DNA of 63,998 nucleotides, the filler included, from an uncultured bacterium (lineage in GTDB: Bacteria; CAYSBA01), in NCBI GenBank assembly GCA_964429075.1. It is 10 parts of 10 records of this genome, joined end to end, with 100 filler letters (N's around TTAATTAATTAA, not from the genome) between each part and the next. Parts side by side here need not be neighbours in the genome. Positions count along the whole stretch, not along the records: positions 13,420 to 19,999 come from CAYSBA010000073.1; 9 more parts are not named here. The stretch is one strand, 5' to 3'. The notes below the pieces were generated by a model that saw only the letters and a program-made list of their open reading frames with translations, was not told where the DNA came from and did not search any database. The number at the start of each line of letters is the position of its first letter. Position 1 is the stretch's first letter. A program made the position numbers and the translations under genes. Positions 6,631-61,367 of the stretch are shown piece by piece.

Positions 6631-6730
6631 NNNNNNNNNNNNNNNNNNNNNNNNNNNNNNNNNNNNNNNNNNNNTTAATTAATTAANNNNNNNNNNNNNN
6701 NNNNNNNNNNNNNNNNNNNNNNNNNNNNNN
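6631..6730. other. artificial contig spacer
   Basis: N44-TTAATTAATTAA-N44 (stops in all six frames). Confidence 0.99.
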
Positions 6731-7559: not shown

Positions 7560-8141
7560 ATGGGTAAAAAACAGGAACAAAAATTTGACAATATCCTTGA
7601 TGCTGTGGCCAAGGTTGTCTCAGAAAAGGGATATGGCGGTGCAGCAATGAGGATGGTTGCAAAGGAGGCCAACATCAGCCTTGCAGGGATGTATTACTAT
7701 TTTAGTAGTAAAGATGAGATGCTCTTTAGGATCCAGTATGAAACATTCAGGAGCATTGTTGATACCCTCAAGATAAAATTAAAACAGGCAAAGACAGATA
7801 AAGAAAAAATTAGAGCAATAGTAGAAAATCATGTATCTCATTTTACAAAAGACATGAATAGGCTGAAAGTATGTGTGCATGAGCTGGAGAGTCTCAAAGG
7901 AGAATACTATCAACGAGTTCTTGATGTAAGAAGAGATTATTTTAAGCTTGTAAAAGATACTGTAGAGTCAATAACAAATAAGGATGGCTATATTGCATCA
8001 CTACTGTTGTTCGGGATGATAAACTGGATATATACCTGGTACAGGCCAAGAGGGAGAATAAAAAAGGAGGATTTGATAAATCAAACGGTAAATATTTTTT
8101 TAAATGGTATTAATGGGCAAAAGGAGGAAGATCATGTTTGA
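7560..8141 (+). CDS. TetR/AcrR family regulator (KstR2/PaaR-like C-terminus)
   Basis: N-terminal HTH (VAKEANISLAGMYYYFSSKDE); C-terminal GMINWIYTWYRP. Confidence 0.9.
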   Translation: MGKKQEQKFDNILDAVAKVVSEKGYGGAAMRMVAKEANISLAGMYYYFSSKDEMLFRIQYETFRSIVDTLKIKLKQAKTDKEKIRAIVENHVSHFTKDMNRLKVCVHELESLKGEYYQRVLDVRRDYFKLVKDTVESITNKDGYIASLLLFGMINWIYTWYRPRGRIKKEDLINQTVNIFLNGINGQKEEDHV

Positions 8142-9279
8142 AAGGTTTAAAGAGTGGTATTACAACAGGCATGAGTATGCAAAAAGGTGGAAAGAGGAAA
8201 AGGGAGGTAAGATAATAGGTACATTTTGCACCTATGTCCCAGAAGAGATAATCTATGCTGCCGGGGCCCTTCCTGTAAGAGTACTCGGGAGTCATGAACC
8301 GCAGGATGTCTCTGAGAGGTACATCTTTTCTATGTTCTGTCCCTTCTGCCGTGATGTCCTTGCTCAGGGTCTTAAGGGTCGCTATTCCTATCTTGATGGT
8401 ATAACAATTGCACAATCCTGTCTGCATCTCAGGCAGGCATATACTTCCTGGCAAAACCACGTCCCTGTGGATTTTGATTATTATATTTACATGCCGATGA
8501 AGGTTCAGACCCCACATGCAGTCCCTTATTATGCATCAGAGATATCAAAGTATAAAGACTCCCTCGAGCAGTGGATGGGGAAAAGTATAACCGATAGTGA
8601 TATTGAAGAAGCAATTGAGATAGTGAATGAAAACAGGAAACTCTTGCATAAACTTTATGAGTTTCGCAAGATGAATCCTCCACTGTTAACAGGCACAGAG
8701 TCGATGTTTGTAAGTGTAACCTCTCAATTTATCGACAAAAGAGAACACTCAGAGGAATTAAAAAAGCTCCTTGAAAAATTGCCAGACAGAAAGCCACCTG
8801 TAGATGAAGAAAAAAAGAGGTTGATGATAATTGGTAGCGAAAATGATGACATAGAACTTCTTGATATGATAGAATCTCTGAATGCAGTAATTGTTACAGA
8901 CGATCATTGTACCGGGACACGCTATTTCTACAATACGGTGGAAGATCATAAAGATGGACTTTTGCATGCAATATCTCAGAGGTACATAAAACGCCCACCA
9001 TGTCCCAATAAGGATTGGGAAGTAAGGACTAGATTTCCCCACATACTCAAACTCTACGAGGACTTTGGTGCTGAGGGAGTGATACTATTACAACAAAAAT
9101 TCTGTGATCCTCATGAACTCGACATACCACCACTTACAGCCTTCTTAAAAGAGAGAGACATTCCGGTACTATTCCTCGAACTGGATGTTACAGTGCCAAA
9201 GGGGCAATTTAGAATAAGGGTAGAGGCCTTTTTGGAGATGATGAGTCAGGCTGATCTTTTTGATGAAGATCTTTTTTAA
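8134..9279 (+). CDS. bzdN: benzoyl-CoA reductase, bzd-type, subunit N
   Basis: HgdB/FldC fold; [26 protein letters not shown] and KFCDPH; RBS AAGGAGG. Confidence 0.9.
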
Positions 9280-9290
9280 TGGAGAGAGCT

Positions 9291-10589
9291 ATGGCTAAAT
9301 ATAAGACAGAACCCCTTAGATGTTGGAAAAAGGCAAAAGAGCTGAGACTGAAATACTATAAAGACTTTAAGGAGGCAAAAGAAAAAGGTGGTCTCAGGTG
9401 GACAGGCGGTGCATGGTCATTCGATGCACTTCCTGCTGGTCTTGGTGATGATGTCTATAATATCACCGGTGAACCATATGGTGCATCCATTGCCTTTGAT
9501 AGAGAGTTTGCAAAGCGCTGTCAGGAAGCAACAGAAGCTAAGGGATGGGCAAGAGATCTATGCTCCTACATGAGAAACTACTGGGGTTCCATGTATCTTA
9601 ATGAATATGCCTTTGGTGGAGAATATCCCACACCAGATTTTTGTTTTCAGGATCATATATGTTGCAGTCATGCAAAGTGGTATCAGCATGTTTCTGAATA
9701 TAAAAATATCCCCTTTTTCTGTATCGATGTAAGTGTTGGACCCTACAAAAAACTTGATAAAGATAGGCTGAATTATGTTGTAAACCAGATGGAAGAAGCA
9801 ATTGAGTGGATGGAAAAGATAACAGGCAGAAAATACGACGATGAAAAACTTATCCAAGCTGTATATAACGAATGCAGAAGTACATCTCTATGGGCAGAAA
9901 TCTGTACACTTAATAAAGCTGTACCTGCACCTCTAGATGAGAAGACGATGTATTCATTATATGTACTTGGAACTCTGAGGAAATCTTCAAAGGAGGTGGC
10001 AGACTTTTATGAAGAGTTAAGAGATGAGGTCAAATATCGTGTGGAAAATCAAATAGCTGCAATACCAAATGAGAAATGCAGGGTGATGTCTGACACCCAG
10101 CCACCATGGGCATTCTTGAAGATTTTTAGATATCTGCAGGAGTATGGTGCAGTGTCGATAGGGTCACTCTATACCTTTGGTCTTATTGGTATCTGGGAAG
10201 AGAAGGAGGATGGCACCTGGGGTCCAAGGACAACCCCTCAGGAGAAGGGTATAAAGATTGAGACAAGGAGACAGGCACTTGAAATCCTTGCAGACTGGAA
10301 CCTGAGTAAACCTGAATGGCAGCATTTTTACGATCCAGATATAAAATCAGAGATGATGAAACGGATTGTAAAAGAGTGGAAGGTTGATGGTGTTATGCTA
10401 CATCTCAACAGGGGTTGTGAGGGTTTAACCTGTGGAATAATGGAAAACAGACTGAGCCTACTTGAGATGGGGGTGCCCGTTATGACCTTTGAAGGTAATA
10501 TGGGTGATGAGAGGGAATTTGATGAGGCAAGGACCAGGAGCCGAATAGACTCCTTTATGGAGACCTTGGGGTTAAAAAGTGTAAGTTGA
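9291..10589 (+). CDS. bzdO: benzoyl-CoA reductase, bzd-type, subunit O
   Basis: [45 protein letters not shown] and HLNRGCEG. Confidence 0.92.
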
Positions 10590-10600
10590 TGGAGGTGACC

Positions 10601-11368
10601 ATGTCTTATATTGCAGGGCTCGATATAGGAGCAAAATTCATAAAAGCAGTACTTATGAAAGATAAAGAGGTGGTTGCAAGGTTTAAGTCAACCATCGGTT
10701 TTGATCAGAAGGCCTCTATAGAAGAGGCACTTTCAAATCTTCTTTCAGAAGGTGGTGTTAGAAAAGAGGATGTGAGTAAAATCATTGCTACAGGTGCAGG
10801 CAGGAAGCTTGTCGAATTTGCTGACGACTCTATCACAGAGATTTCTGCTGCAGCAGCTGGAGCCCACTATTTGTTTGATTCTGCACGGACAGTTGTAGAT
10901 GTGGGTGCTGAGGAGGGCAGGGCTATAAAGTGTGATGATAAAGGAAAGGTTGTTGATTTTGCAGTAAACGAAAAATGTGCTGCAGGTGCGGGTGCCTTTA
11001 CAGAGTCTATGTCAAGGGCACTTGAACTGAGTCTTGATGAGTTTGCAAAGATATCACTTGAGAGTGACAGAGAGATTGCAATGAATGCACAATGTACTGT
11101 ATTTGCTGAGTCTGAGGTAGTATCACTCCTTCATTCAAATGTCCCCAAAAAGGATATTGCAAGGGCAATTCATGATGCAATAGCAAGCAGGATAGGTGCA
11201 ATGGTAAGGAGGGTTGGATTAAATCAGGATGTTGTAGTTATTGGTGGACTTGCAAAGAATGTGGGTTTTATTGATTCCCTTAAGAGGAACCTCGGTTCAG
11301 AGATCCTTGTGCCAGAAGATCCCGAGTTTGGTAGTGCAATAGGTGCTGCCCTGTTGGGAAGCAATTGA
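10601..11368 (+). CDS. bzdP: benzoyl-CoA reductase ATPase/activase subunit P
   Basis: ASKHA activase motifs GLDIGA, DVGAEEGR, NEKCAAGAG and QCTVFAESEV. Confidence 0.88.
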   Translation: MSYIAGLDIGAKFIKAVLMKDKEVVARFKSTIGFDQKASIEEALSNLLSEGGVRKEDVSKIIATGAGRKLVEFADDSITEISAAAAGAHYLFDSARTVVDVGAEEGRAIKCDDKGKVVDFAVNEKCAAGAGAFTESMSRALELSLDEFAKISLESDREIAMNAQCTVFAESEVVSLLHSNVPKKDIARAIHDAIASRIGAMVRRVGLNQDVVVIGGLAKNVGFIDSLKRNLGSEILVPEDPEFGSAIGAALLGSN

Positions 11369-11392
11369 TCGAACGATCATAAGGAGGAAAAG

Positions 11393-12274
11393 ATGGAAAA
11401 AGAAAAAGAGTTCTGGAGGTGGACAGAATACTCTTGGAGGGATCCAGATCTCAACTGGAAAGAGGCTGAGGTCCTGACCCTTGGTATTGATGTGGGCTCA
11501 GTAAGCTCTCAGGCTGTTATACTCGCAGATGGAAAGCTATTCGCTTACAGTACTGTCAGAACAGGTTCAAACAGCCCTGATAGTGCCAAAAAGGCATTTG
11601 ATGCTGCTGCAGATGGTACCGGGCTAACAATTGAAGATATGAAATATGTGGTCGGTACAGGCTACGGAAGGGTAAATGTCCCCTTTGCTCACAGGGCAAT
11701 AACAGAGATAGCCTGTCATGCAAGGGGTGCTAACTACATGGCCGGCTCAACAGTAAGGACAATTCTTGATATGGGTGGTCAGGATTGTAAGGCAATACAT
11801 TGCGATTCAAGAGGTAAGGTTACAAATTTTTTAATGAACGATAAATGTGCTGCGGGGACAGGCAGAGGTATGGAGGTGATCGCAGATCTCTTTCAGGTAC
11901 CGATAGAGGAACTCGGTCCCCTTTCCCTTCAGGTAGATGAAGATCCTGACCCGGTAAGCAGTACCTGTGTGGTATTTGCAAAGTCTGAGGCCATGGCACT
12001 CCTCAGAGAGGGCTGGTCCAAGAATGAGGTACTTGCTGCTTACTGTGCTGCAATGGTTCAGCGTATTGTAGCTCTACTTGAGAGGATAGGAATGGAGGAG
12101 GATTTTTTTATAACCGGCGGGATTGCAAAGAATGAAGGTATTGTAAAGAGGCTTGCAAAGGTCCTGGGTGTGGAACCTCTTAAGTCAAAGTATGATAGTC
12201 AGATAGCAGGAGCACTAGGCGCGGCCCTTTTTGCAAAGGCCCTGTATGAAAAAAAGGTTAAACAAGGTAAGTAG
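11393..12274 (+). CDS. bzdQ: benzoyl-CoA reductase ATPase/activase subunit Q
   Basis: FWRW N-terminus, GIDVGSVSSQA, DMGGQDCK and NDKCAAGTG. Confidence 0.92.
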   Translation: MEKEKEFWRWTEYSWRDPDLNWKEAEVLTLGIDVGSVSSQAVILADGKLFAYSTVRTGSNSPDSAKKAFDAAADGTGLTIEDMKYVVGTGYGRVNVPFAHRAITEIACHARGANYMAGSTVRTILDMGGQDCKAIHCDSRGKVTNFLMNDKCAAGTGRGMEVIADLFQVPIEELGPLSLQVDEDPDPVSSTCVVFAKSEAMALLREGWSKNEVLAAYCAAMVQRIVALLERIGMEEDFFITGGIAKNEGIVKRLAKVLGVEPLKSKYDSQIAGALGAALFAKALYEKKVKQGK

Positions 12275-13319: not shown

Positions 13320-13419
13320 NNNNNNNNNNNNNNNNNNNNNNNNNNNNNNNNNNNNNNNNNNNNTTAATTAATTAANNNNNNNNNNNNNNNNNNNNNNNNN
13401 NNNNNNNNNNNNNNNNNNN
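13320..13419. other. artificial contig spacer
   Basis: N44-TTAATTAATTAA-N44. Confidence 0.99.
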
Positions 13420-13420
13420 A

Positions 13421-13537
13421 ACAGAAAGGAGCTCTTACTATCTATTAAAGGAAGCTGATAAAATTAGAGATAGACTGATTTCAATGGGAGTCGAATTGAG
13501 AGATACAAAGGAGGGTACAGAGTGGTTCATAAGGTGA
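13421..13537 (+). CDS. cysS: cysteinyl-tRNA synthetase, 3' fragment
   Basis: Manual translation ...EADKIRDRLISMGVELRDTKEGTEWFIR*, the typical CysRS C-terminus. Confidence 0.75.
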   Translation, partial: TERSSYYLLKEADKIRDRLISMGVELRDTKEGTEWFIR

Positions 13538-14313
13538 TACCAGCAATTGTAGAGAGCTTATCCAGAAAAAGGATCCCCGGGCCATTAAGACCGTTAATTT
13601 TCAAAAGCTATTCTAAGATATTTGATGTAAATCTCCGTGAGCTTAATAGGCCGATCACAGATTATGAAAACCTAATAGATTTTTTTACAAGAGATGTGAA
13701 AAGAAAGGCCGATGAGGTGGAGCCACTATTCCCATCCGATGGGATTTTACGGCATTTCGGAAATGTCAAAGAGGGTGTTTTCAGAATAAAGGGATACACC
13801 TATAGGTTATCTGATTTTTTGCCATCTACAGAGGAAAGTCTGTTTAAAGATGGGGTATACTGGATATTTCATCTAAGGCCAGGTGATTATCATAGGGTGC
13901 ATAGCCCTGTATGTGGCAGAATATTCAATTACTGCTTTTTCCCTGGCAAGGTATATCCCGTAAACAGGATTGGTGAGAGGTTTGTATGTGGGCTTTATAG
14001 AAAAAATGCAAGGCTATCGATCCTAATGGATACAAAAGACTATGGGAAGGTATCTATTGTTATGATTGGTGCCTTTAACGTGGGTGTTATCGACTCTGTC
14101 TGTGGTCTTTTTGATGCAAAAAAAGATCTTTTTACTGACTGGCAGAGCATTGATATTAGAGTCAAGGCAGGTGATTGGATTGGCACATTCTATCTTGGGA
14201 GTACGGTGTTACTTTTAATGGAAAGGGGTTACGATTGTCTGATAAAAGAGGAGGGCAGGAAGGTGTCTGCCCTTGCCAGTATGCGAGAGGGGAATCAAAA
14301 CAAGGAGGAATGA
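13522..14313 (+). CDS. psd: phosphatidylserine decarboxylase proenzyme
   Basis: FFTR, PSDG, DYHRVHSP, GAFNVG and the LGST self-cleavage motif. Confidence 0.9.
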   Translation: MVHKVIPAIVESLSRKRIPGPLRPLIFKSYSKIFDVNLRELNRPITDYENLIDFFTRDVKRKADEVEPLFPSDGILRHFGNVKEGVFRIKGYTYRLSDFLPSTEESLFKDGVYWIFHLRPGDYHRVHSPVCGRIFNYCFFPGKVYPVNRIGERFVCGLYRKNARLSILMDTKDYGKVSIVMIGAFNVGVIDSVCGLFDAKKDLFTDWQSIDIRVKAGDWIGTFYLGSTVLLLMERGYDCLIKEEGRKVSALASMREGNQNKEE

Positions 14314-14315
14314 TG

Positions 14316-15158
14316 ATGAAATATCTAAAAGAGTGGGGCTTTTTTATTGTATCATGTCTTTTTTTAACCCTATTTGCTTGCAGTGGTACAAACAGAGAGA
14401 TAAGGATTATGCAAATAAAGCCTACATGTGAGATACAGCAGCTCAATGGGATAGCAACATCGTTTGATGATGTCAAAGTTACTGCCAGCTTTCACATTGC
14501 AAATCCATCTACTTCTGCACTTGAGATTAATTCTATTGAGTATACCATACAGGCTGTTGCGACTGGCTGGAAGACAACAGGTAAAATAAAGGCATCATCT
14601 CTAAGGGTGGAGCCAAATAAAGGCATTAATACGCCCTTTGAAATAAAATTAAGATATAAAGATTTGATGGCAAAGGGGGAAAAAAGCTCGTCAGTTTCTG
14701 CAAGATTAACAATGGTTGCAAGATTGTCTTCTGGTGGAAATGAACTCCAGTGTAGTGCGAATACTGTAGAGACCCTGCCGATGCCACAGATGCCAAGGGT
14801 GGATTTCAGGGATTTTCAGATAGGTAGATTCTCAAACAAAAAGGCAGAGTTAACTGCAGGAGTGTATATCGTTAATCCAAATCCCTTTAAATTGAAGGTT
14901 GATGGTCTTAAGTATAAGATATTTGTAAATGAAAAGGAGGTTGGATCGGATGAGGTGGCCTATGATGAGACAATATTACCAAACGCATCACTCGAATACG
15001 ATCTCTCGGCCATGCTTAATGAAGAAACATATGGTAAAGAGGTAGTTAAGCTGTTAAAGGAGAAGTTTTTGAAGTACAGGGTGGAGGCTGAGCTTACTGT
15101 TGGTGGTCAAAAAAAGATATTTTCAACAGAGGGTGAGGTAAAATTAGAAGAAAAGTAG
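14316..15158 (+). CDS. LEA type 2 (WHy) double-domain lipoprotein
   Basis: RBS AAGGAGG; lipobox LFAC; two NP-motif domains (IANPS, IVNPNPF). Confidence 0.75.
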   Translation: MKYLKEWGFFIVSCLFLTLFACSGTNREIRIMQIKPTCEIQQLNGIATSFDDVKVTASFHIANPSTSALEINSIEYTIQAVATGWKTTGKIKASSLRVEPNKGINTPFEIKLRYKDLMAKGEKSSSVSARLTMVARLSSGGNELQCSANTVETLPMPQMPRVDFRDFQIGRFSNKKAELTAGVYIVNPNPFKLKVDGLKYKIFVNEKEVGSDEVAYDETILPNASLEYDLSAMLNEETYGKEVVKLLKEKFLKYRVEAELTVGGQKKIFSTEGEVKLEEK

Positions 15159-15168
15159 TTATACACCA

Positions 15169-16386
15169 ATGGAAATTGTTTTTGCAAGACATATGGGATT
15201 GTGTTGGGGTGTTAAAAGGGCGATTAAGATGGCAGAGGATGCCATTGATAGATATGGCAGAGTGGTTGCAACAGGTCCACTCGTACATAATAAAAGGGTG
15301 AACAGTAATCTTAAAGAACGTGGCCTTGTTTTTTCAGATATCAATGATGTAGATGATGGTACCGTTGTCTTGATAAGGACCCATAGCCTTGAGGCAGGAT
15401 TCTACAAAAGATTAAAAGATAAAAACAGCATTATAGTAGATGCAACATGTCCTTATGTAAGGATACCTATCAATAAATGTAGTCTTTATTCAAAACGGGG
15501 ATATACGGTTGTCGTTGCCGGTAAAAAGGATCATCCAGAAGTTAGGGCAGTTGTAAGTTATGCAAAGGGCAGGGTAGTGGTTGTGAATGATCCAGAAGAA
15601 CTCGAAGGATTTAGTGAAAAACGTGTTGCCCTACTTGCTCAAACAACTCTACGAAAGGATCGTTTTGATAAGATTAAGGAACGTCTGTCACAATGTTGTG
15701 GTGAGCTTGTAATAATAGATACAATCTGTGATGCAACTACATTGAGGCAAAAAAGCACAGAAGAATTGGCACAAAGTACCGATGTTATTCTTATTATTGG
15801 AGATAGAACCAGTGCAAATACAAATCATCTTTTTGAGATCGCAAAGAGATTCAATGAGAATGCATACTTTGTACAGGATGCGGATGAAATCGATCCATCG
15901 TGGTTTTCAGATCCATCAATAAGGGTTGGTATTACTGCAGGGGCATCCACTCCAGATGAAATGATAAAAGAGTGTGTTGAAAAAATAAAGTTTATTGAGC
16001 ATGAAAAATGGGGCGAGCGTTTTGAAGATTTTATAAAGAACATACCAGATGGTGCTACATATAGTGCAATATCAGAAAAGGGGTCTATAAAACCTCAGAA
16101 AAAGTCAATTCATCATAAAAGGGATACTGCGACGATTGATCTTCATGGGCTTTTTGTAGAAGAGGCCCTATTAAAATTAAAGAATAAAATAGTAAGTCTT
16201 CTTGGGAAAAACGTTGAATTGAGGATTATACACGGTAAGGGGATACACAGTCCCGAAGGTAGATCCATCTTACAGAAAGCTGTAAGGGAATGGCTTGATG
16301 GAGAGGGCAGGTCATTTATAAGATCGTTCAGAACCGGTAGACCTAAAGAGGGTGGAGATGGTGTAACTATTGTGGTGGTAAAATGA
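15169..16386 (+). CDS. ispH: HMBPP reductase IspH fused to a C-terminal Smr domain
   Basis: GLCWGVKRA, DATCPYV, HPEV, QTT, TICDAT and GITAGASTP, then DLHG, IIHGKG and EGGDGVTIV in the same frame. Confidence 0.9.
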   Translation: MEIVFARHMGLCWGVKRAIKMAEDAIDRYGRVVATGPLVHNKRVNSNLKERGLVFSDINDVDDGTVVLIRTHSLEAGFYKRLKDKNSIIVDATCPYVRIPINKCSLYSKRGYTVVVAGKKDHPEVRAVVSYAKGRVVVVNDPEELEGFSEKRVALLAQTTLRKDRFDKIKERLSQCCGELVIIDTICDATTLRQKSTEELAQSTDVILIIGDRTSANTNHLFEIAKRFNENAYFVQDADEIDPSWFSDPSIRVGITAGASTPDEMIKECVEKIKFIEHEKWGERFEDFIKNIPDGATYSAISEKGSIKPQKKSIHHKRDTATIDLHGLFVEEALLKLKNKIVSLLGKNVELRIIHGKGIHSPEGRSILQKAVREWLDGEGRSFIRSFRTGRPKEGGDGVTIVVVK

Positions 16387-16392
16387 AAGATC

Positions 16393-17277
16393 ATGAGATT
16401 GAGTGATGCAATAGACCTATTTCTTGATCATCTTATCGTTGAGAAGAATTACAGCCCAAACACGATTTCAGCATACGGGAGAGATTTAGACAGGCTAGCT
16501 GAGTTTTTAAAGGACCCTGATGTAAGAAAAATCAACCCGGAAGGTCTATTGAGGTATATCCGTCATCTCGCAAAGAAGGGACTTTCTGCAAGATCGAGAG
16601 ATAGAGTCATATCAAGTATCAGGAGCATGTTCAAGTTTCTTGTGAATGAAGGGGTTTTAAAGACCAGTCCTGCATCTGAGCTTATACTTCCAAAGGTACC
16701 CCGAGATATACCAGATGTACTTACGGTTGAAGAGACCGAAAGGCTGCTTTCTGCACCTGACAAAAATAGTTTACTTGGTATCCGTGACAGTGCTATATTA
16801 GAGCTTTTGTATGCTACCGGTATTCGAGTAAGTGAACTATGTAATATAGATTACGACGATATTGATTTAGAAAAGGGGATACTGCTTGTTTTTGGTAAGG
16901 GGTCCAAAGAGAGGGTTGTACCGGTAGGTGAAAAGGCAAGACAGGCGGTAATTCAATATTCTGAATACTCCCGGAATGTTTTAATCGGTATGGGGAAAAC
17001 AAGTGCTCTTTTTGTTAATAGATTCGGAAAAAGGATAAGCAGACAGGGTGTCTGGAAGATGATTAAGGGATATCTTATAAAGTGTGGTCTCGATCCAGGG
17101 ATTTCACCACACAAACTGAGGCACTCTTTTGCTACACATCTACTTGAAAGGGGGGCAGATATAAGGAGTGTTCAGATTCTGCTTGGTCATTCTGATATAT
17201 CAACAACACAGATCTATACACATGTTGCAAAAGAGAGGCTTAAAAGATTAAAAGAGAAGTATCATCCAAGGGGATGA
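16393..17277 (+). CDS. xerD: site-specific tyrosine recombinase XerD
   Basis: LYATGIRVSE, GKGSKER, HKLRHSFATH, LGHSDISTTQIY and YHPRG terminus. Confidence 0.93.
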   Translation: MRLSDAIDLFLDHLIVEKNYSPNTISAYGRDLDRLAEFLKDPDVRKINPEGLLRYIRHLAKKGLSARSRDRVISSIRSMFKFLVNEGVLKTSPASELILPKVPRDIPDVLTVEETERLLSAPDKNSLLGIRDSAILELLYATGIRVSELCNIDYDDIDLEKGILLVFGKGSKERVVPVGEKARQAVIQYSEYSRNVLIGMGKTSALFVNRFGKRISRQGVWKMIKGYLIKCGLDPGISPHKLRHSFATHLLERGADIRSVQILLGHSDISTTQIYTHVAKERLKRLKEKYHPRG

Positions 17278-17304: not shown

Positions 17305-17375
17305 AAAAAATTGATTGATGGTTGACGGTAGATACAAAATTATGCTATGTTATTTTTAAAAGCATGGAGTTTACC

Positions 17376-19999
17376 ATGAAATTTTTACATAAGAGTTATG
17401 TTTTTCTGCTACTATTTTTGGTTTTTTGTTTAGGATACACAAAGTTCTCTTTTGCACAGACCCCCCCACCCGATTTGATACCTTACCAGGGGATATTAAA
17501 CAATCTCGATGGGACTCCTGTTAATGGGACAGCCGATCTCATCTTCAGGATATATAACGATCCTCTTGCAGGTACAGAACTATGGGGTGAGAAACACACT
17601 GGTGTAACCATCAGTAACGGTCTGTTTGAGGTAATCCTCGGTTCTGGTTCAGCTGTCGGCTCTGAACCACATCCATCCTTGAGCTCTGTGATTGCTTCAG
17701 GCAGTGCCCTTTACCTTACTATTCAGGTCAATTCCGACACTGAGATGAGCCCCCGTCAACGAATCGCAACAAGTGCCTATTCTCTTAATGCCGATCTATT
17801 TGATGGGTATGATAGCTCAGATTTTTATACTCGGACACAGGCTGATGCTGCCTTTGTAAATGTCACCGGAGACACCATGACAGGTAATCTCACCATCTCT
17901 GGTGCCAACTTTTCTGTAACAGGCACTGCAACAGTTGGCTCCAACATAACTGTGGGAGGAAATGCAACTGTATCCGGTAATATGAATATTGCAGGAAGTG
18001 CTCAGATACAAACTAATCTATCTGTAAGTGGTTCTGGTAGTATTGGTGGCGCACTCTCTGTAACTGGCAACATCAGCACAGGTGGCAACATCATAATGAG
18101 CAACAAAAATATCACCGGGGTTAATTCTATATCTATGACAGGCGGTGACATAACAAATGCAGGCAACATATCGATGACCGGCAATCTGAACACCGGTGGT
18201 GCAGCATCTATAAGTGGGAATACAAGCATAGGTGGTACGTTAACAGTAAATGGTGCAACAACAGCTAACGGTGCAGTTACTGTAAACAACGATGTCACCA
18301 TAAAAGGCAACCTCTCTATGAGTGGTGTCAGTAAGACTATAGATATGAACAATAACAAGATAGTTAATCTTGGGAATCCTACTGCAAACTACGATGCAGC
18401 AACAAAGTGGTATGTGGATAATGCAATTGTTTCTGGTAACTTTGTAAAACGTTCTGGTGACACAATGACCGGTGCGCTTCAATTCAGTGCAGGTATCGGG
18501 AATGCACTTGTACTAAACGATAATAATGTCATTGGTGTAAATGCCATCTATGCAGATGTAGGCTCAGATGCGGGGTACCGCTTTACAGCTGATAATGCGG
18601 GTATATATGTATCCTCTAATACTGATGGTTCTGGTACCCTTGCAGGATATCTACATTTGTTTCCAAGTTCCCAGAAACAGATTCTTGTCCATGGAAGGTT
18701 GGTTATGATGGACAATGGTACCACACAGGGTAACATCAATATGAATGGTAATGCTATTTATAATGTGTCACAGTTAAAAGGTACAGCAGGATCAACACTA
18801 TATATAAACTATAATACCTCTGGTGAGATCCATATTGGTCAGGGTGCAAATGGAACCTTGAGGACCTATGGTGCAAACTATCTTGGAAATTCTGCAACTG
18901 AGCACACCTATATAAGTGGTGATGCCTATGTAGAGGGTGCAGATCTCATATTATATTCCGACACGTCCACCTATTCGAGGATTTGGTTGTCTGGAGGGAC
19001 AAACGCTGATGCAAATGGATCGGATTATATGCGTTTCAGGGACAGTGATAATACATTCTGGCTTGTCGCAGATGGTTCTACAAGGTTGAAACTAACAGGC
19101 TCTACTCTCTCAATTTATGGAAATATGGACGCCAACAATTACAAAATAACAAACCTTGCCGATGCTACTTTAGATCAGGATGCGGTAAACCTGAGGACCG
19201 CAAGGCAGGAGATTCAGAACTACTTGGGTGGTGGGTACTCTGGAGATTTAGCGGTTGCGCATGGCTACAAGCTGATATTTCAGGACGATACAGATCCAAA
19301 TCTTGGTTTTTTCAAAGAGATAACACCTGCCACTACTGATGGAATTGATATTGGGATGTATGTACTTAACAATACAGGGGCTACAGATTCGACAAGATTT
19401 TCTATCTGGGGTGGAACAAGTGAGGCTACGGCCTCTTTGATGCACTATTTTACCTCAACTGGTAAGGCCTATCACGCCACAAATCTTACAATTGGTTCAA
19501 CCACCCCTGTGACCCTCTATCCGAATGGGGCTGGTGCGCTTGTGGTTTCAAATACAAATGGCTATGTAATTGTTGGCCCGCAGAACAGTGGCTGGTCCCA
19601 TTTTTATACCAACAGAGCACGGTATTACTTTGATAAAGAGATTGTTGTTGGTAATGGATTTTTTGGTAGCTACATTGGTGTTCCACTCAGATTACAGGCA
19701 CCATACGGTTCTACAAGAATGACTATACTTACAAATGGTAATGTTGGAATAGGTACCACATCACCTCAGAGAAGGCTTGAGATTTACAGCACAAGTTATC
19801 AATTAAGACTTAGTGGATCCGGTCCAAACGGTATCGAATTTAGAGATTCTGCTGGAGCTGGTCTTAATCTACTTTACCGCACATCATCAGATAGATTGCA
19901 GATAGAAAATGGATCTAGTGTTGCACTCTTTTCAGTAGATAGAGGCACCCAGCAGGTATACATCAAGGGTGCAACAGGTATTGGTACCAGGCCCTCTGG
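17376..19999 (+). CDS. secreted trimeric fibre / adhesin-like protein, 3' truncated
   Basis: Sec signal; N-terminal YQG...GLFEVILG...PRQRI domain; Gly/Asn/Thr beta-repeats; two YadA-stalk-like motifs (KIVNLGNP..DAAT, KITNLAD..DAVN); GDTMTG and GNVGIGTTSP motifs. Confidence 0.7.
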
Positions 20000-20099
20000 N
20001 NNNNNNNNNNNNNNNNNNNNNNNNNNNNNNNNNNNNNNNNNNNTTAATTAATTAANNNNNNNNNNNNNNNNNNNNNNNNNNNNNNNNNNNNNNNNNNNN
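20000..20099. other. artificial contig spacer
   Basis: N44-TTAATTAATTAA-N44. Confidence 0.99.
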
Positions 20100-21556: not shown

Positions 21557-23554
21557 CTAATATTCCTCTGGGGGAATAGGTAGATAGATGTAAAAGGTTG
21601 ACCCCTGGTTCTTCTTACTTTCAACCTTTATTGTACCCTCATGTGCATCTATAATCTTTTTTGCAATATATAGTCCAAGTCCTGCACCACCATGTTTTCT
21701 TGTGTGTGTTTCTTCGACCTGATAAAAGAGTTCGAATATCTTATCAAGGTTGTCGATATCTATCCCGGTACCATAGTCACGAATCCATATTACGATATAG
21801 TCTCTCCCTTCTGTGCCAAATTTACGCCGTCTTATATCCCTCTTTTCATCGATAATTATATTTTTTTGTGTCTCTATTCCAACCTCGATTCTGGATTTTT
21901 CAGGGCTGAATTTTACAGCATTGTTCAGTATGTTTACGAAAACCTGTTTGAGTTTCAGTTCGTCTCCTAATGTCTGTGGTATTGAGTCTTGTATCTTTGT
22001 GATAATCTCGATATCTTTTTTTTTGGCCATAGGGAGGATCGTCTGAATACAGGATTCAATTACAGGAATAAGGTTAACCTCTCTTTTGCTAAGCGAAATT
22101 GCTCTGTCTTCAAACTGTGTTGCTTCAAGGAGATTTGTGATCAGAGAATACAACTCGTCTGTCTTATTCTCGACAATATCAAGATATTTCTTTACATCAT
22201 CAGAGGCATCCTTTAGATCTTCCCTGATAAATTCAAGGTATCCCTTAATTGATGTGAGGGGTGTACGTAATTCATGGCTTACCTTTGCAAGAAAGGTTGT
22301 CTTCAAGCGGTCAACCTCTTTTAGTTTACTGTAGGCCTCTTCAAGTTCTGTATGTTTTTTCTTCAATTCCTCAAAGGTCTCTTTAAGAGTCTTTACATGT
22401 TGTTCTGTCATTACCTTTACCTTATAGTCTGCATAGATGAGTTCTGTGGCCACTGTAGAGATGCAATTTGCAATTTTTTTTACCCTTTTTTCATCGTAAT
22501 GTGGAAATGGCACCTTTTGATCGATAAGTGAGTATGGACCGATAACAAGCTTCATAATCGGCTCTTCCTGAAAAAGTACACCGGAAATACATGTAGCAAG
22601 ATTTCCCTTTAGGGGGAGAAAAACCAGTTTTTTCTCTTTAAGAACACTCTGCTCTGCCCTTTTGTGCCTTATCAATTCTCCATGTAATTTTGCTATCCTT
22701 GATTTGTGTTGTGAAATTCTCTCGGGGACCCTTGTTATTAAATTTTTGTTAGTGTAGCTATAAAAACTCAGTGGCAATAAGAAGGCCTCAGTAAAACTTT
22801 CCTGTAGTTCATATAGAAGTGTGTCATCAAAATGAAACAACTCTTCTTTTAGTCTATCTTCTATCTTTATCTCTGTAGTTATCCTAAGTTCTGGTTCTTC
22901 GTTCTTTATAAAGGAGAATATTGCCTCTATGAATTCATCGGTTGAAAGACCGGTCTTTTCAACTATTCTGAATCTTACATCGAGGTTGTTCCAGAGAATT
23001 ACAAGAAGTGTTCTCAATGTTTCAAGCACCCCTTCACCATTGATTGCTGATGCCTTAATTACCGGTCTATCAGAATTTCTCATAAACTGTTCGATCTTGC
23101 TGTCCTCAAGCCTGTCTGGAAGATCTATCTTATTGAACTGTATAACCACAGGCACACTGTGGTAATCTATACCGTTGGATTCAAGATTCTCAAGCATATT
23201 TTCCCATGCACTGTTGTTTAGCCTTATCCTGTCTTTTTGTGCGTCTGCAACAAAGACAATGCCATCAACCTGCTGCAGGACCTGTCTCCGTGTTGCGTTG
23301 TGTATAACTTGACCGGGGACCGTAAATAGCTTGAGGTTTATCCTATAGTCCTTTTTTGTCCTGAATGATATTGGTAAAAGATCAAAGAATATGGTCCTGT
23401 CATCCTTGGTGTCAAGTTCCATCAATTTGCCTCTGTACTGTGGTCTGATGAATGAGTATACCTTCTGTAGATTGGTGGTCTTTCCAGAAAGAGGAGGACC
23501 GTAGTATACCACCTTTATTGCCAGCTCTTTTTGTGTGACATTAAGAACTACCAT
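21557..23554 (-). CDS. MglA/SofG-like small GTPase fused to a PocR-like domain and histidine kinase
   Basis: YYGPPLSGKTTNL, DRTIFFD, TVPGQ, NKID and SA; then SHELRTPL, NILNNAVKF, DYGTGI and GAGLGL; one uninterrupted 665-aa ORF with no TM segment. Confidence 0.88.
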   Translation of the reverse strand: MVVLNVTQKELAIKVVYYGPPLSGKTTNLQKVYSFIRPQYRGKLMELDTKDDRTIFFDLLPISFRTKKDYRINLKLFTVPGQVIHNATRRQVLQQVDGIVFVADAQKDRIRLNNSAWENMLENLESNGIDYHSVPVVIQFNKIDLPDRLEDSKIEQFMRNSDRPVIKASAINGEGVLETLRTLLVILWNNLDVRFRIVEKTGLSTDEFIEAIFSFIKNEEPELRITTEIKIEDRLKEELFHFDDTLLYELQESFTEAFLLPLSFYSYTNKNLITRVPERISQHKSRIAKLHGELIRHKRAEQSVLKEKKLVFLPLKGNLATCISGVLFQEEPIMKLVIGPYSLIDQKVPFPHYDEKRVKKIANCISTVATELIYADYKVKVMTEQHVKTLKETFEELKKKHTELEEAYSKLKEVDRLKTTFLAKVSHELRTPLTSIKGYLEFIREDLKDASDDVKKYLDIVENKTDELYSLITNLLEATQFEDRAISLSKREVNLIPVIESCIQTILPMAKKKDIEIITKIQDSIPQTLGDELKLKQVFVNILNNAVKFSPEKSRIEVGIETQKNIIIDEKRDIRRRKFGTEGRDYIVIWIRDYGTGIDIDNLDKIFELFYQVEETHTRKHGGAGLGLYIAKKIIDAHEGTIKVESKKNQGSTFYIYLPIPPEEY

Positions 23555-29292: not shown

Positions 29293-31417
29293 TATAAAAA
29301 CCTCCTTTTTTTACTTGACCAATAAAGTAAAATTAGTCCTATTAATAATGCAAAACTATCGCCACTGTTCAAACTTGAACTACAACAGCCTGTTTTTTCA
29401 TCTTTTGTACTCTTATTTTTAAGTGGTACAGCTTCTCCAGATGAATAACAGATATGTTTACCACCCACAGCTGTACACATAAATCCAGAAGGACACCGCT
29501 GTGCATTATCGCAGATAGTAACACAAACACTCTTCTCTAATACTGTCATACACAAATCGTCTATACAATCGTTGTTTGTACTACATTCTTCACCAATTCT
29601 TTCTCCTTTCTGCTTATCTTTGACACATACCCATCCTGAATCTGCTATTTGTTGGCAAATATAACCATCAGGACAATTATCAGAATCTTTATCGCAATAA
29701 TCGGTACAATAATTATTCCCATCTAAATCAATACAAACACCAGAAAAACAANNNNNNNNNNAAAGGGAACTATATCTTTGTTTATAGGCCAGCATATATC
29801 GTCTGATAATATGCCGGTTGAAACACACTGATATCCAGAGGGACATAGATTTTCAGCAGAACATATCGATGTACATAACTCCTGTCCTACAGGGCCATCA
29901 CATAGAGATGTCTCACATTCACTATTTGAATTACATGGCTCACCAAACTTCTTTTGTTTAGTATTATTCTCTATACATTGACCATCAACACAATGATAAT
30001 TATCTGCACAATCTGAATCTATGACACACTCTGATGACTTATCTTGACAACGCCCACCAACACATTCTTGACTGGGCTGGCAATCGGAATTATCAACACA
30101 TTCTGGTTCCTGTACACAAGTATGATTCTGACATTTTTTGCCAGCCGGGCAATCTGCATCCACATTACATTCACCCGGATTATAGGGATAACAGGCACCT
30201 TCACCACTATCTCTACCCACAATTTGAAAACATAATAGATCTTCCCTGGGACAATCATTATAGGCCGGGTTACATTTATAGAGACAGATATTTTCATTGT
30301 TGTAGAAGATACATGTAAGTCCTTCTTTACAATAAAGACGACCTCCACATATATCACCCTCATTCTGAGTTGCCGGTAGACAGGCATAATTACCATCAGA
30401 AAGGGCTACACAGGTATAATTCGGCCCACAATCTTGATTAGAAGGATCGCAAGCAATCCTGCATATCCCAGTCATACCTGATCCTACATCTTTATCACAA
30501 ACAAGATTATTTATGCATGGGCAGTTGTCATCACACTGATCACCAACTTGAGTACCATTTGAACAACCTCTTGGGACGCAATAATTCTCTGTACCAACGC
30601 TATCACATATAAAATTGGAATCACAGTCCATATCACTGTTACATCTTTTTGAACATATTTTTTGTGTATTATTGGTGATACATACAAGACCGGTGTCGCA
30701 ATCCGATGTACTACTACAGCTAAATCCCATTTTAGCACCATTTGATGGGTAGAGATCGCAGACTCCATTTATATCGTCCTGATGAAGAGAACGTTTTGAA
30801 GTTTCACAATATCCGGCTGTTGGAGCCATAGTAGCACCTGACACATCTGAATGTTCTAATCCTAAAAAATGTCCTGACTCATGAGTCACTATATTCTCTA
30901 TATCAACCATATGTCTAAAACTGTCGCAGTATCTTGTTGCATCTGAGGTCCACAAAAAATTTTCACCGTTCATTTCAATATCAGCATCATATATTCTGGC
31001 ATCTGATCTGAACTTTGGGGTAGTTATAGCTATAGCATGTTGTGTATATTCTGGTGGCCAGCCAGATTCTATCCAGTAGACAATATTTTTACCATCGCCA
31101 GTTGCCTGTCTCAATGTTGTTGTACCCATATATATGACTGCAAAATATGAACAGCTTACACTGTTCCAGTGATAAAATCCTCTTATTACGGCATCAATAT
31201 CAGTACCGTCATGAACATCGTCTGACCCGGCTTCGTTAATATAGACTGAAACAGGTATTTTACTCGCAGGCCAGTATATTTTTTCTCCGCTTGATGTAGT
31301 TATATTTGTATATGCAAATGATTTTTCCTGTATAAGAATTATTAATATTAAAATACTCAAATAAAATTTCCTGTATTTTGCCTTATCATAATCTATTTTT
31401 TTGTGAGATAAACCCAT
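29289..31417 (-). CDS. matrixin-family metalloprotease with Cys-rich repeats and MYXO-CTERM-like tail (spans the 10-N gap at 29752-29761)
   Basis: Signal peptide, DADIEMN, HESGHFLGLEH and Met-turn ATMAP; Cx4DC repeats; tail TGCCSS-TM-KKRR; the two track ORFs join by alignment with the paralogue. Confidence 0.82.
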
Positions 31418-46478: not shown

Positions 46479-46632
46479 TAAAGGTCATCTTTTATATTTT
46501 TTCCATAGAAATTCAATTGAAATAACGAGATTTTTTGTTATTACTTTATAGAGACTATTTATAGTCCTTAAGCTACTACAATCGTCCATGCTACCTATTT
46601 GACAAAGACAAAATATCTGATATTGCTTGTAT

Positions 46633-48426
46633 ATGAAATACTTAAAAGCTCTAATATTTTCATTAGTTTTTCTATTTATCTTTAATTGTGGTGGTGACAG
46701 TCATCCACCTACCACATGTAAGTCTGATGCAGATTGCCCTACCGGTAAGGTATGCTACAAAAAGGCATGTGTTGATATCTCTGAAGCCGATAACGACGGT
46801 GATGGTGTCTCTGCAAAAGATGGTGACTGTGATGACTCAAATCCGCTTATGTACCCTGAAGCAATTGAAGACTGCGATGGTCTTGATAACGATTGTAATG
46901 GTGTGGTCGACGAAGGCTGTGAATGTGTAAATGGAGAAACACGTCCCTGCAGTAAAAATATGGGTATCTGCAAAGAGGGGACCCAGAAATGTGAAAATGG
47001 CAACTGGAGCGACTGTATAGGTGGCGTTGAACCTCTACCAATTGATGATTGTGGCGACATGCTTGATAATGACTGCGATGGTTCAGTAGATGAACTTTGC
47101 GCCTGCTCTAACGAAGGAGAACAGAGACCATGTGGTACTCCCATTGGCACATGTACAGAAGGAGTGCAGACCTGTACAAATGGACAGTGGACAGAATGTC
47201 AAAATGCTGTGTTCCCACAAGAAGAGATATGCGACGACAATCTGGATAACGATTGTGATGGCTCTATCGATGAAGGATGTACCTGTACAACCGGACAGAC
47301 CAAGGATTGTGGTATGGATGTTGGTGCCTGTTCCAAGGGGACTCAAGAATGTGTTGATGGCAAATGGAGCCTATGCGAGGGTGGAACACTACCAGAACCA
47401 GAGCTCTGTGATGGTTTAGATAATGATTGTGATGGTGAGGTGGATGAAGACTTTGTAATCCTCAACACAGGGTGCAGTGTGGGAGTGGGTGAGTGTAAGA
47501 GGGATGGATTTTATATTTGCAGCCCTGATGGTGAGGGAGTTATATGCAATGTAGAACCCGGAGAACCACACGAAGAGATCTGTGATGGTAAAGACAACGA
47601 TTGCGACGGACAGATAGATGAAGATCAGGATGGCAATCCAATGACTGTACACTGTTATGATGGACCTGATGGGACAGAAGGAGTAGGACCGTGTGTGGGA
47701 GGTGAAAAGCAGTGCATCAATGGGACATGGACGACCTGCGATGGTGAGGTTCTTCCACAACCAGAACTCTGTGATGGGCTTGATAATAATTGTGATGGTC
47801 AGGTAGATGAGATATTTTTGAATCTTGGGCAGCCCTGCAGTGTGGGTCTGGGTGAATGTGAAAGACAGGGGGTGTATATCTGTGAACCTGTTACACAACG
47901 TACAACCATCTGTGATGCAAATCCCGGGACACCACAAAATGAGGTCTGCGACGGCAAAGATAACGATTGTGATGGTCAGGTTGATGAAGAACTTACAAGG
48001 AGTTGCTCATACGGCTGTGGAGAGGGTGCAGAGGTATGTTATCAGGGTCAATGGGTAGGATGCACAGCACCACAACCTTCACAGGAAGTCTGCGATGGTA
48101 TTGATAACGACTGTGACGGACAGATAGATGAAGATTTTACCCTTGGTGGCTCCTGTTCTGTTGGTGTAGGCTCATGTAAAAGCGTAGGATTTATAATCTG
48201 TGACCCCAACGATCCTACAAGAACTGTTTGCAATGCAGTTGCCGGTCAACCTGCTGCTGAGGCCTGCGACGATGGAGTTGACAACGATTGTGATGGTCAG
48301 GTTGATGAGGATTGCGGTGGTTGTGCAAGATATTCAAACTATCTCCCCACGGCATTAGGAGGATTTATCTTTATGTTAATTTTTCGTATTAAAAAAAATA
48401 AAAAGGAGGAGCAAGAAGATGCTTAA
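46633..48426 (+). CDS. Cys-rich lipoprotein with nine MopE-related (putative metal-binding) repeats and C-terminal sorting-like tail
   Basis: Lipobox-like FIFNC; nine CDGxDNDCDGxxDE-type units; tail GGC-TM-RIKKNKK. Confidence 0.8.
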   Translation: MKYLKALIFSLVFLFIFNCGGDSHPPTTCKSDADCPTGKVCYKKACVDISEADNDGDGVSAKDGDCDDSNPLMYPEAIEDCDGLDNDCNGVVDEGCECVNGETRPCSKNMGICKEGTQKCENGNWSDCIGGVEPLPIDDCGDMLDNDCDGSVDELCACSNEGEQRPCGTPIGTCTEGVQTCTNGQWTECQNAVFPQEEICDDNLDNDCDGSIDEGCTCTTGQTKDCGMDVGACSKGTQECVDGKWSLCEGGTLPEPELCDGLDNDCDGEVDEDFVILNTGCSVGVGECKRDGFYICSPDGEGVICNVEPGEPHEEICDGKDNDCDGQIDEDQDGNPMTVHCYDGPDGTEGVGPCVGGEKQCINGTWTTCDGEVLPQPELCDGLDNNCDGQVDEIFLNLGQPCSVGLGECERQGVYICEPVTQRTTICDANPGTPQNEVCDGKDNDCDGQVDEELTRSCSYGCGEGAEVCYQGQWVGCTAPQPSQEVCDGIDNDCDGQIDEDFTLGGSCSVGVGSCKSVGFIICDPNDPTRTVCNAVAGQPAAEACDDGVDNDCDGQVDEDCGGCARYSNYLPTALGGFIFMLIFRIKKNKKEEQEDA

Positions 48427-60379: not shown

Positions 60380-61367
60380 CTGCTCCCAAACCGTTATTAT
60401 GGGCTATTGGTTGGTTAATTCTTGCAAGCACCTCCAGCACTCTGGCTGCAAAGTGTGTAAAGTACTCTGCACCAGGATAGTGGCCTGGATCAGGAAAGGA
60501 AACCCCTAAAGATTTTCCTGTGATCTTTGCTTTCTCAAAGATACCTCTAAAAAATGATGCAAGTAAATATTCATCACCAGCCCAGGGCCTGGTTGTTATT
60601 GATTTTAGTATTTGATCCAGTAAATGAAATACATTGACCCAGTTTAAGTATAAAAAAGGCTCTCTTAACTCAAAAAGAGCAAACCATTTGTCTCTTTTCT
60701 CAAGTGTAAAGATACCCTGCTTTGTGTCATCTATCTTAGTTAACAATCCAGCTTTGTGCCACCTTTTGAGAATCTCATAAACATTTCTCTGACTGTGAAA
60801 AACCTCTCTTGCGATTGAATTAGAGTTACCTTTGTCATGAGCCAAAAGATATAAAAAAACTTCTGCTTTAGACTCCACTCCAAATATACCTCTGAGTTTA
60901 AGCTGCAGTAGTGATAGTCTTTGAATAAAGGGTTCTGTTACTATACCTCNNNNNNNNNNTCCATATTCAGAACCAGTTTCTTTAAGGAACATTAAACTAC
61001 CCTTAAAATCTCTTTCTTTTTCATCTTTCTTGAAAAGCCCATCAAACAAATCTAATGTCTCTCGATCAATTAGACTGGTATTTTTTAAGTCAGCTATTGG
61101 TGTAACAAATAGATCCCTAACCCTCTTTATCCTTTTGGTATTTATCAATCTACCATAAGTACTCAACCACTCTATGGAGGCACTCAAGAGACGTCTGTCC
61201 AGTACACCTACTGCAAAAGTAGATACAGCTAAAGCTTCAAGATCTATTATCCAGTTCTTCTCTGGATTGATATTAGATGCTACACCGAGAGCCGACCACT
61301 GCTTCCAGTGAATATCAAGAAGGATATCACAAAACCTTTTACTAAATCCTTCTGGCGATATCTTCAT
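60369..61367 (-). CDS. winged-helix protein, putative AbiEi-like antitoxin (contains the 10-N gap at 60950-60959)
   Basis: WKQWSALGV, IDLEAL and LRGIFGV, then HTH (NSNSIAREVFHSQRNVYEIL); coupled to the DUF6036-like gene. Confidence 0.6.
   Translation of the reverse strand: MKISPEGFSKRFCDILLDIHWKQWSALGVASNINPEKNWIIDLEALAVSTFAVGVLDRRLLSASIEWLSTYGRLINTKRIKRVRDLFVTPIADLKNTSLIDRETLDLFDGLFKKDEKERDFKGSLMFLKETGSEYGXXXXGIVTEPFIQRLSLLQLKLRGIFGVESKAEVFLYLLAHDKGNSNSIAREVFHSQRNVYEILKRWHKAGLLTKIDDTKQGIFTLEKRDKWFALFELREPFLYLNWVNVFHLLDQILKSITTRPWAGDEYLLASFFRGIFEKAKITGKSLGVSFPDPGHYPGAEYFTHFAARVLEVLARINQPIAHNNGLGADEK

Follow-up and report, generated by a model that had tools for sequence, protein, structure and literature searches.

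We describe a fused ispH-smr open reading frame (ORF; 15169..16386, + strand) in a 63,998-base stretch of metagenomic DNA (hereafter, the window), in which a hot-spring bacterium carries the isoprenoid enzyme IspH and a ribosome-rescue-type Smr nuclease on one chain. The frame opens with ATG, encodes 405 amino acids (aa) and closes with a TGA stop, and two Pfam domains lie in-frame within it. Smr is a new partner for IspH, as is IspH, at the N-terminus, for a small Smr protein. That the fusion is real we consider highly probable. Our fuller reading, to which we give a rough probability of 0.55, is that it represents a lineage-restricted and accidental fusion of neighbouring genes, with two independent activities on one polypeptide.

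Domain content of the fused frame

The IspH/LytB domain (HMBPP reductase, where HMBPP is 4-hydroxy-3-methylbut-2-enyl diphosphate) occupies aa 3–274 (15175..15990, + strand, as are all features of the fusion given below). Pfam PF02401 (LYTB) matched it over profile positions 1–267 of 267 (E 8.1e-85; 284.8 bits, cut-off 24.5), and the NCBIfam model TIGR00216 (ispH_lytB) was passed with 276.8 bits (cut-off 187.85). In the PDB, IspH of A. aeolicus (3dnf) matched at E 4.2e-60 and entries for the E. coli enzyme at E 3e-43. IspH performs the last step of the methylerythritol phosphate (MEP) isoprenoid pathway. Three cysteines, which we take to be the ligands of its [4Fe-4S] cluster, align with their E. 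coli IspH counterparts: Cys12, the first ligand (codon 15202..15204), with the cysteine of GFCAGV, Cys94 (15448-15450) with that of DATCP, and Cys187 (15727-15729) with that of DICYATT. The His/Glu catalytic pair lies in DHPEV (aa 121–125, 15529..15543), which corresponds in the alignment to GHPEV in E. coli and KNHPEV in A. aeolicus, and AQTTL is found at aa 157–161. Residues H40, H72, H122, E124, T159/T160, S215/N217 and S260 align to the catalytic and substrate columns of E. coli IspH, which are presumably His41, His74, His124, Glu126, Thr167, Ser225/Asn227 and Ser269. With regard to the known bifunctional form, the IspH/S1 model NF000907 scored 292.3 bits against a cut-off of 624, with only positions 1–286 of 671 matching, and no S1 domain was detected by Pfam in the fused ORF.

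The Smr domain (aa 323–405, 16135..16383) matched PF01713 over the complete profile (positions 1–77 of 77; E 1.2e-17; 64.2 bits, cut-off 25.7). Its DxH catalytic motif (D324-L-H326, 16138..16146) lies within IDLHG (aa 323–327). The stretch H355-G-K-G358 (16231..16242), which includes the GxG RNA-binding loop (G356-K-G358), lies within IIHGKGIHS (aa 353–361), and EGGDG stands at aa 394–398. The original prediction, made from the sequence, had described an IspH with its three cluster cysteines, HPEV and QTT that continues in-frame into a complete Smr domain (DLHG, IIHGKGIHS, EGGDG), and all of these elements were located. In an alignment of 31 sequences (A2), H326 and IIHGKGIH were invariant and the D and L of the DLH motif nearly so; the Smr half keeps every invariant residue, namely H326, IIHGKGIH and the two glycines of GGxG. 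A full-length alignment (A1) placed short Smr proteins on the IspH domain and was discarded. An AlphaFold (AF2) model covering aa 266–405 and built on 30 relatives gave a predicted local distance difference test (pLDDT) score >90 for the Smr domain. The best Foldseek match to this model was 2zqe (the Smr domain of T. thermophilus MutS2; TMt 0.88, root-mean-square deviation (rmsd) 1.7), with further matches to 4och, B. subtilis MutS2-disome entries (8r55_z), 3qd7 (E. coli YdaL) and 7qgr_v (SmrB on a disome). As for subfamily models, the SmrA equivalog NF033154 failed (24.6 bits, cut-off 180), no SmrB-specific model matched, and the MutS2 model TIGR01069 reached 49.6 bits (cut-off 400), matching only at model positions 703–788.

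The segment ahead of the Smr domain, aa 275–322 (15991..16134), had been described in the original prediction as a linker of ~45 aa. It is better described as an N-terminal extension of the Smr half, as it aligns with the N-termini of stand-alone Smr proteins of 127–215 aa. At each of the first 73 Smr loci, a stand-alone ORF of 75–286 aa (mostly 127–215 aa) ends in the Smr domain, and the tail of the fusion (aa 276–405, 130 aa) falls within the stand-alone size range. Because the extension is homologous to Smr N-termini and the sizes match, a whole small smr gene, and not a bare domain, was joined to ispH. Judging from these alignments, the ~130-aa gene was apparently fused at its start or no more than a few codons from it. 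The stand-alone relatives start with a sharply conserved MD[FM]x[DE]ILxxW, to which many add WLxxxGxxDKD. In two alignments these motifs fall on KFIEHEKW and ERFEDFIKNIPDG of the fusion (~aa 275–295), where the versions are degenerate. No exact '--xxxa' string, a motif defined for proteobacteria, occurs in aa 275–295, and the N-terminus is not free here. In the AF2 model a helix at aa 267–290 (pLDDT 54–70) is continuous with the C-terminal helix of IspH, and aa 291–319 form a flexible stretch of ~30 aa without regular structure.

One IspH relative bears on the exact position of the joint. P0209 (367 aa) carries, C-terminal to IspH, a ~90-aa extension that belongs to no known family; the string at its junction resembles the IEHEK segment of the fusion. 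Because P0209 has this similar string (K-x-K-x-I-[DE]-H-E-K-x-G) at its IspH end, part of aa 270–282 may be IspH's own, and the joint can be fixed only to aa 275–285.

Coding features are consistent with a single gene. The other two forward frames across the junction contain several stops each, and the GC content by codon position in the first 47 codons of the tail (0.45/0.38/0.28) matches that of the IspH part (0.51/0.38/0.27). The Smr half is without a start of its own because no in-frame ATG, GTG or TTG occurs between 15964 and 16218. As the sequence reads, only the fusion itself or a start at the in-frame ATG 15961 (Met265) could yield the Smr domain. Separate translation from this ATG was considered and set aside, as no Shine-Dalgarno-like sequence is present in the 20 nucleotides (nt) upstream of it.

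The junction in the source metagenome and the rarity of the architecture

Only one public run (X1, a hot-springs metagenome) contains the contig, with 92% of the sampled words. Among its Logan contigs, record 4 has 264 nt at depth 10.7 and matches 15811-16074 with 0 differences and 0 gaps, and record 5, of 502 nt at depth 9.07, matches 16052-16552 with 5 substitutions and 0 gaps; the two share only 23 nt (16052-16074). Record 4 alone joins the IspH C-terminus to 27 codons of the Smr-type extension, and the run of five adenines (A5) at 16004-16008 was confirmed in the Logan contig. As far as these contigs allow, no stop or frameshift follows ...ECVEKIKF, in line with the uninterrupted frame that had been predicted. 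The major Logan contig differs from the window at 7 positions in 15777-15810. At least two strain variants of ispH co-occur in X1, and the minor one (depth 4.7) differs at 25 of 253 positions (15588-15840). The ispH half is under purifying selection between co-occurring strains, since 18 of the 23 ispH codons changed in the minor strain differ synonymously. Two further runs of the same study (X2 and X3) gave no matching contigs, which is not proof of absence.

The architecture is a singleton in the searches made, and these negatives are not exhaustive. A whole-protein search of 5.8 billion clustered proteins, which relies on shared 5-residue words, gave 7,408 significant matches out of 7,999 scored. 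Among the best 120 of the 7,408, the only protein with both PF02401 and PF01713 was the window's own, and the next best were plain IspH proteins, the nearest public relatives of the IspH half at 43–45% identity. When aa 276–405 were compared with proteins of 222–709 aa (144 candidates by shared 5-residue words), the tail found only itself. Of 9,990 HMMER matches among 1.84 billion representatives, the best 150 were examined; the query alone covered aa 1–405, and none of the 149 others matched the Smr part. Pfam assignments of 29 longer IspH matches included 11 with S1, 7 with UbiA, 3 with an N-terminal cytidylate kinase, 1 with an FGase-like domain and 7 with no second family; Smr was found in none of the 29. 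For the tail alone, a comparison with proteins of 71–228 aa returned 17 candidates, none significant, which reflects a limit of the word index, as tblastn found 144 relatives. The ESM Atlas returned no usable match and provides no evidence either way.

Genome-level searches gave the same picture. Pattern scans of species-representative genomes and Joint Genome Institute (JGI) metagenomes found relatives of the tail at 144 loci and of the IspH half at 16 (tblastn), and ispH and smr occurred together in none of these 160 loci. In the genomes of the closest loci, the two genes were on different contigs in 5 of 5. We also sampled 121 Spirochaetota genomes, 118 of which had a match, and none among the matches listed spans both halves; where ispH and smr lie on one contig (genomes G034, G097, G026, G045 and G095), they are, among the matches listed, at least 30 kb apart. 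Relatives of the Smr tail are spirochaete-like, but they do not place the organism, because the IspH half is only 26–38% identical to Spirochaetota IspH, against 43–45% for its best matches.

Some longer IspH frames came up alongside these searches. The apparent C-terminal extensions of IspH in Brevinematales (open frames of 410–419 aa) proved to be over-long upstream frames and were rejected as fusions. IspH matches in Spirochaetota often lie in open frames of ~550–680 aa (e.g., G095, G066, G027, G043, G117, and others), which suggests that S1-type IspH fusions may be common in this phylum too. One 480-aa protein (P0237) joins IspH to a domain like N-formylglutamate amidohydrolase or poly-gamma-glutamate hydrolase (FGase-like); this partner is absent from the list in a survey of IspH fusions (Rao et al. 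2015, Chem Sci, PMC4746011).

Origin of the fusion and alternative readings

In our reading, ispH would have lost its stop codon and come to run in-frame into a complete small smr gene. The event most likely took place between abutting or overlapping co-directional genes, via a very small mutation. A tiny mutation would be enough to fuse smr to its upstream gene, because the small smr genes of relatives often touch or overlap that gene (L010, L011, L096, L013, L016). A possible scar can be read at 16001..16025 (+): an off-frame ATG (16001-16003), the A5 run (16004-16008) and an off-frame TGA (16023-16025). With one more A in the run, the ATG opens the Smr frame and ispH stops at the TGA, which leaves two genes that overlap and have normal sizes. 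The fusion could thus plausibly have come from the loss of one base in such an ispH-smr pair. Off-frame ATG and TGA features are also not rare by chance, and the A5 point doubles as the basis for an explanation by artefact. The product would be one 405-aa polypeptide with halves that work independently. The IspH half would convert HMBPP into isopentenyl diphosphate (IPP) and dimethylallyl diphosphate (DMAPP), and the Smr half, on a flexible tether, would dock at collided ribosomes and cut mRNA, as is presumed for stand-alone small Smr proteins. We infer this mode of origin, together with the retention of both activities and the absence of mutual regulation.

It is very unlikely, in our view, that the organism has two true genes and that the fused frame was produced by a sequencing or assembly error (e.g., in the homopolymer 16004-16008) or by a chimeric join of two organisms. 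The extra A would indeed give an ispH ending at 16023-16025 and an smr that starts at 16001-16003 and has the size of its relatives. In addition, the metagenome contigs that make up the window are short (~6.6 kb), the sample contains several co-occurring strains, and Logan records 4 and 5 overlap by so few bases. Nonetheless, a second assembler reached the same junction with 0 gaps at a depth of 10.7, and record 4 on its own carries the IspH C-terminus and the 27 extension codons. Coverage stays even from one side of the join to the other (10.7 vs 9.07), and the 10-N scaffold gaps elsewhere in the window suggest short reads, in which A5 runs are read reliably. A different possibility, unlikely though carrying some weight, accepts the fusion as real and considers it recent and neutral to harmful, with one half impaired. 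The impaired half would most likely be Smr, whose recruiting N-terminus is no longer free, and the fusion would be short-lived and limited to one population, with other rescue factors or another copy of the gene elsewhere in the genome to compensate. The fusion's singleton status fits this, as do the off-frame ATG and TGA, which resemble fresh scars, and the MD[FM]x[DE]ILxxW motif, which stands at the extreme N-terminus in relatives and is degenerate and internal here; an SMR-only construct of E. coli SmrB did not bind ribosomes (Saito et al., preprint 10.1101/2021.08.16.456513). Decay, however, is visible in neither half: the Smr half has kept all residues that are invariant in A2, and the variant contig differs by 5 substitutions and no indel over 16052-16552.

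The original prediction went further and proposed that the fusion possibly ties translation quality control to Fe-S or isoprenoid status. This was not supported, given a singleton whose two genes were never neighbours in 160 loci and in 5 + 121 genomes. Read as a functional 'Rosetta stone', the fusion would place IspH on the ribosome, or put the Smr nuclease under oxygen- and iron-sensitive [4Fe-4S] control, and Fe-S or isoprenoid status would modulate the rescue of collided ribosomes. We consider this improbable. On its side, all catalytic motifs are kept in both halves, and the ribosome-linked protein RPS1 is already an IspH partner in 447 sequences of the survey, which also speculates that the cluster acts as a switch near RelA on the ribosome (PMC4746011). 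Collided ribosomes are sites at which Smr domains dock (preprint 10.1101/2021.08.16.456513). The window also holds anaerobe-type genes (HgdC/BcrAD-type activators, 2-hydroxyglutaryl-CoA dehydratase-like), and IspH fusions have been reported from anaerobes (PMC4746011). On the other side are a single example with no conserved adjacency, the remark in the same survey that single-example fusions are possibly random, the degenerate state of the SmrB-type ribosome-recruiting N-terminal motif, and halves linked by neither experiment nor co-variation. The analogy to IspH-RPS1 is what speaks for coupling. Extended fully, the analogy would make IspH-Smr a second independent case, after IspH-RPS1, of IspH tethered to the translating ribosome, where the [4Fe-4S] or HMBPP state gates Smr, or Smr delivers IspH; this strikes us as very improbable.

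Our reading of an accidental fusion with two independent activities needs to be interpreted with caution, considering several points that weigh against it. The independence of the halves is an assumption. The run X1 is probably the source sample of the window itself, and the evidence at the junction comes from Logan contigs rather than raw reads; the minor-strain contig (depth 4.7) is confined to 15588-15840 and stops short of the junction. No adjoining unfused ispH-smr pair was found in 160 loci or in 126 genomes, and the ancestral adjacency is thus undocumented. By analogy to SmrB, the Smr half may not work normally, as the segment equivalent to the SmrB extension is degenerate and buried behind a 31-kDa domain.

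With regard to what the fusion means, IspH-Smr for now mainly extends the list of one-off IspH fusions by one partner, and it indicates that a small Smr protein can follow a 31-kDa N-terminal domain with all its motifs intact. Were its halves coupled, this protein could serve as a ready-made construct for testing whether IspH has an additional function at the ribosome, a role that was raised for IspH-RPS1 and never decisively settled. Tethering to the ribosome, if true, would directly support the long-standing but unproven connection between LytB/IspH and the stringent response. The conserved N-terminal motif of the stand-alone Smr relatives is a by-product of the analysis.

Genomic context and comparison with known systems

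The window consists of individual contigs of ~6.6 kb strung together with N44-TTAATTAATTAA-N44 spacers between them (e.g., 6631-6730, 13320-13419, 20000-20099), with 10-N scaffold gaps at 29752-29761 and 60950-60959. Gene neighbourhood is not readable across the spacers, and true neighbours of the fusion lie only within its own contig (13420-19999; 6,580 bp). A single contig of the same length (6,580 nt) is on record for the identical database protein, P0001. The five genes of this contig all run in the same direction with little space between them; the fused gene is flanked by gaps of 10 and 6 nt. Upstream are psd (13522-14313, +) and a gene for an LEA_2-domain protein (about 14307-15158, +), which ends 10 nt ahead of the ispH start. 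Outside the fusion on its downstream side is xerD (16393-17277, +; TIGR02225 recomb_XerD, 353.3 bits, cut-off 329.6), followed by an ORF for a large repeat protein of ~890 aa (17322-19999, +) that runs off the contig end. The latter has a signal-peptide-like start and many short Gly/Asn/Thr/Ser-rich repeats, and its match to the T7 tail-fibre N-terminal domain was sub-threshold only. No second ispH, smr or mutS2 was found within the 64-kb window.

Elsewhere in the window, 8104-12274 (+) encodes two HGD-D subunits (2-hydroxyglutaryl-CoA dehydratase/benzoyl-CoA reductase-like) and two BcrAD/BadFG-type ATPases behind a TetR regulator, a cluster that points to an anaerobic lifestyle of the organism. 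A 665-aa histidine kinase (21557-23554, -; HisKA + HATPase_c) carries an Arf/small-GTPase-like domain at its N-terminus (Pfam Arf, E 2.3e-9), an unusual sensor architecture. Two large proteins at 46627-51040 (+) contain many MopE-type putative metal-binding motifs, and the second also contains VWA and thrombospondin type 3 repeats.

Comparisons with known Smr proteins place the tail closest to stand-alone small proteins. MutS2 shares the Smr fold and provides the best structural matches (2zqe and 4och, TMt 0.86–0.88), whereas the fusion is without the MutS ATPase, clamp and KOW domain. E. coli SmrB is an endonuclease of collided ribosomes, for which the DxH and GxG motifs and, for proteobacteria, the N-terminal '--xxxa' motif were defined; its activity is abolished by a DLH-to-ALA change, and its N-terminal helix hooks around uS2 (preprint 10.1101/2021.08.16.456513). 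The fusion resembles SmrB in its predicted layout of N-terminal helix, flexible stretch and C-terminal Smr domain (7qgr_v; rmsd 2.2 over 86 columns), but its N-terminus continues from IspH, it has no exact '--xxxa', and identity is 23%. The closest relatives of the tail (34–45% identity) are the stand-alone small Smr proteins of Spirochaetota and allies (L008, L009, L024, L090, L092, and others). The shortest of these (127–148 aa) have the length of the tail, the IIHGKGIHS and GGxG blocks are common to both, and L008, L009, L024, L090, L092 and L093 share with the tail a small insertion after 'WL'. They differ in being separate genes, often 3' of Bat/TPR/VWA-type genes and 5' of a DnaJ-domain gene or tsaE, with no ispH in the locus (5–6 kb of flank where the contig allows). 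The N-terminal MD[FM]x[DE]ILxxW, then often WLxxxGxxDKD, was seen in L008, L010, L013, L016, L018, L021, L094, L096 and ~100 further loci; by analogy, MD[FM]x[DE]ILxxW may be a non-proteobacterial counterpart of the SmrB uS2 hook.

On the IspH side, we found no description of an IspH-Smr architecture in the literature on IspH/LytB with Smr, and neither 'Smr' nor 'MutS' occurs in the text of PMC4746011, where Smr is not among the partners given; the original prediction likewise knew of no described fusion of this kind. Its statement that IspH fusions to S1 and UbiA are known was also correct, with 447 RPS1 and 47 UbiA fusions in that survey and both partners among our 29 longer relatives. The partners found there in single species are CMP kinase, helicase, FBPase and UDP/PNP phosphorylase, and the activity of IspH-RPS1 was unchanged after removal of the S1 domains (PMC4746011). 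Given that S1, UbiA and FGase-like fusions occur among the 29 relatives and that S1 removal is harmless, C-terminal partners are tolerated by IspH. Like the IspH fusions to RPS1 and UbiA, the protein described here has a complete N-terminal IspH with a second module on its C-terminal helix, and the RPS1 partner is, as noted, ribosome-linked. It differs in that the partner is an Smr nuclease module, which joins 447 RPS1 and 47 UbiA fusions as one case of its own.

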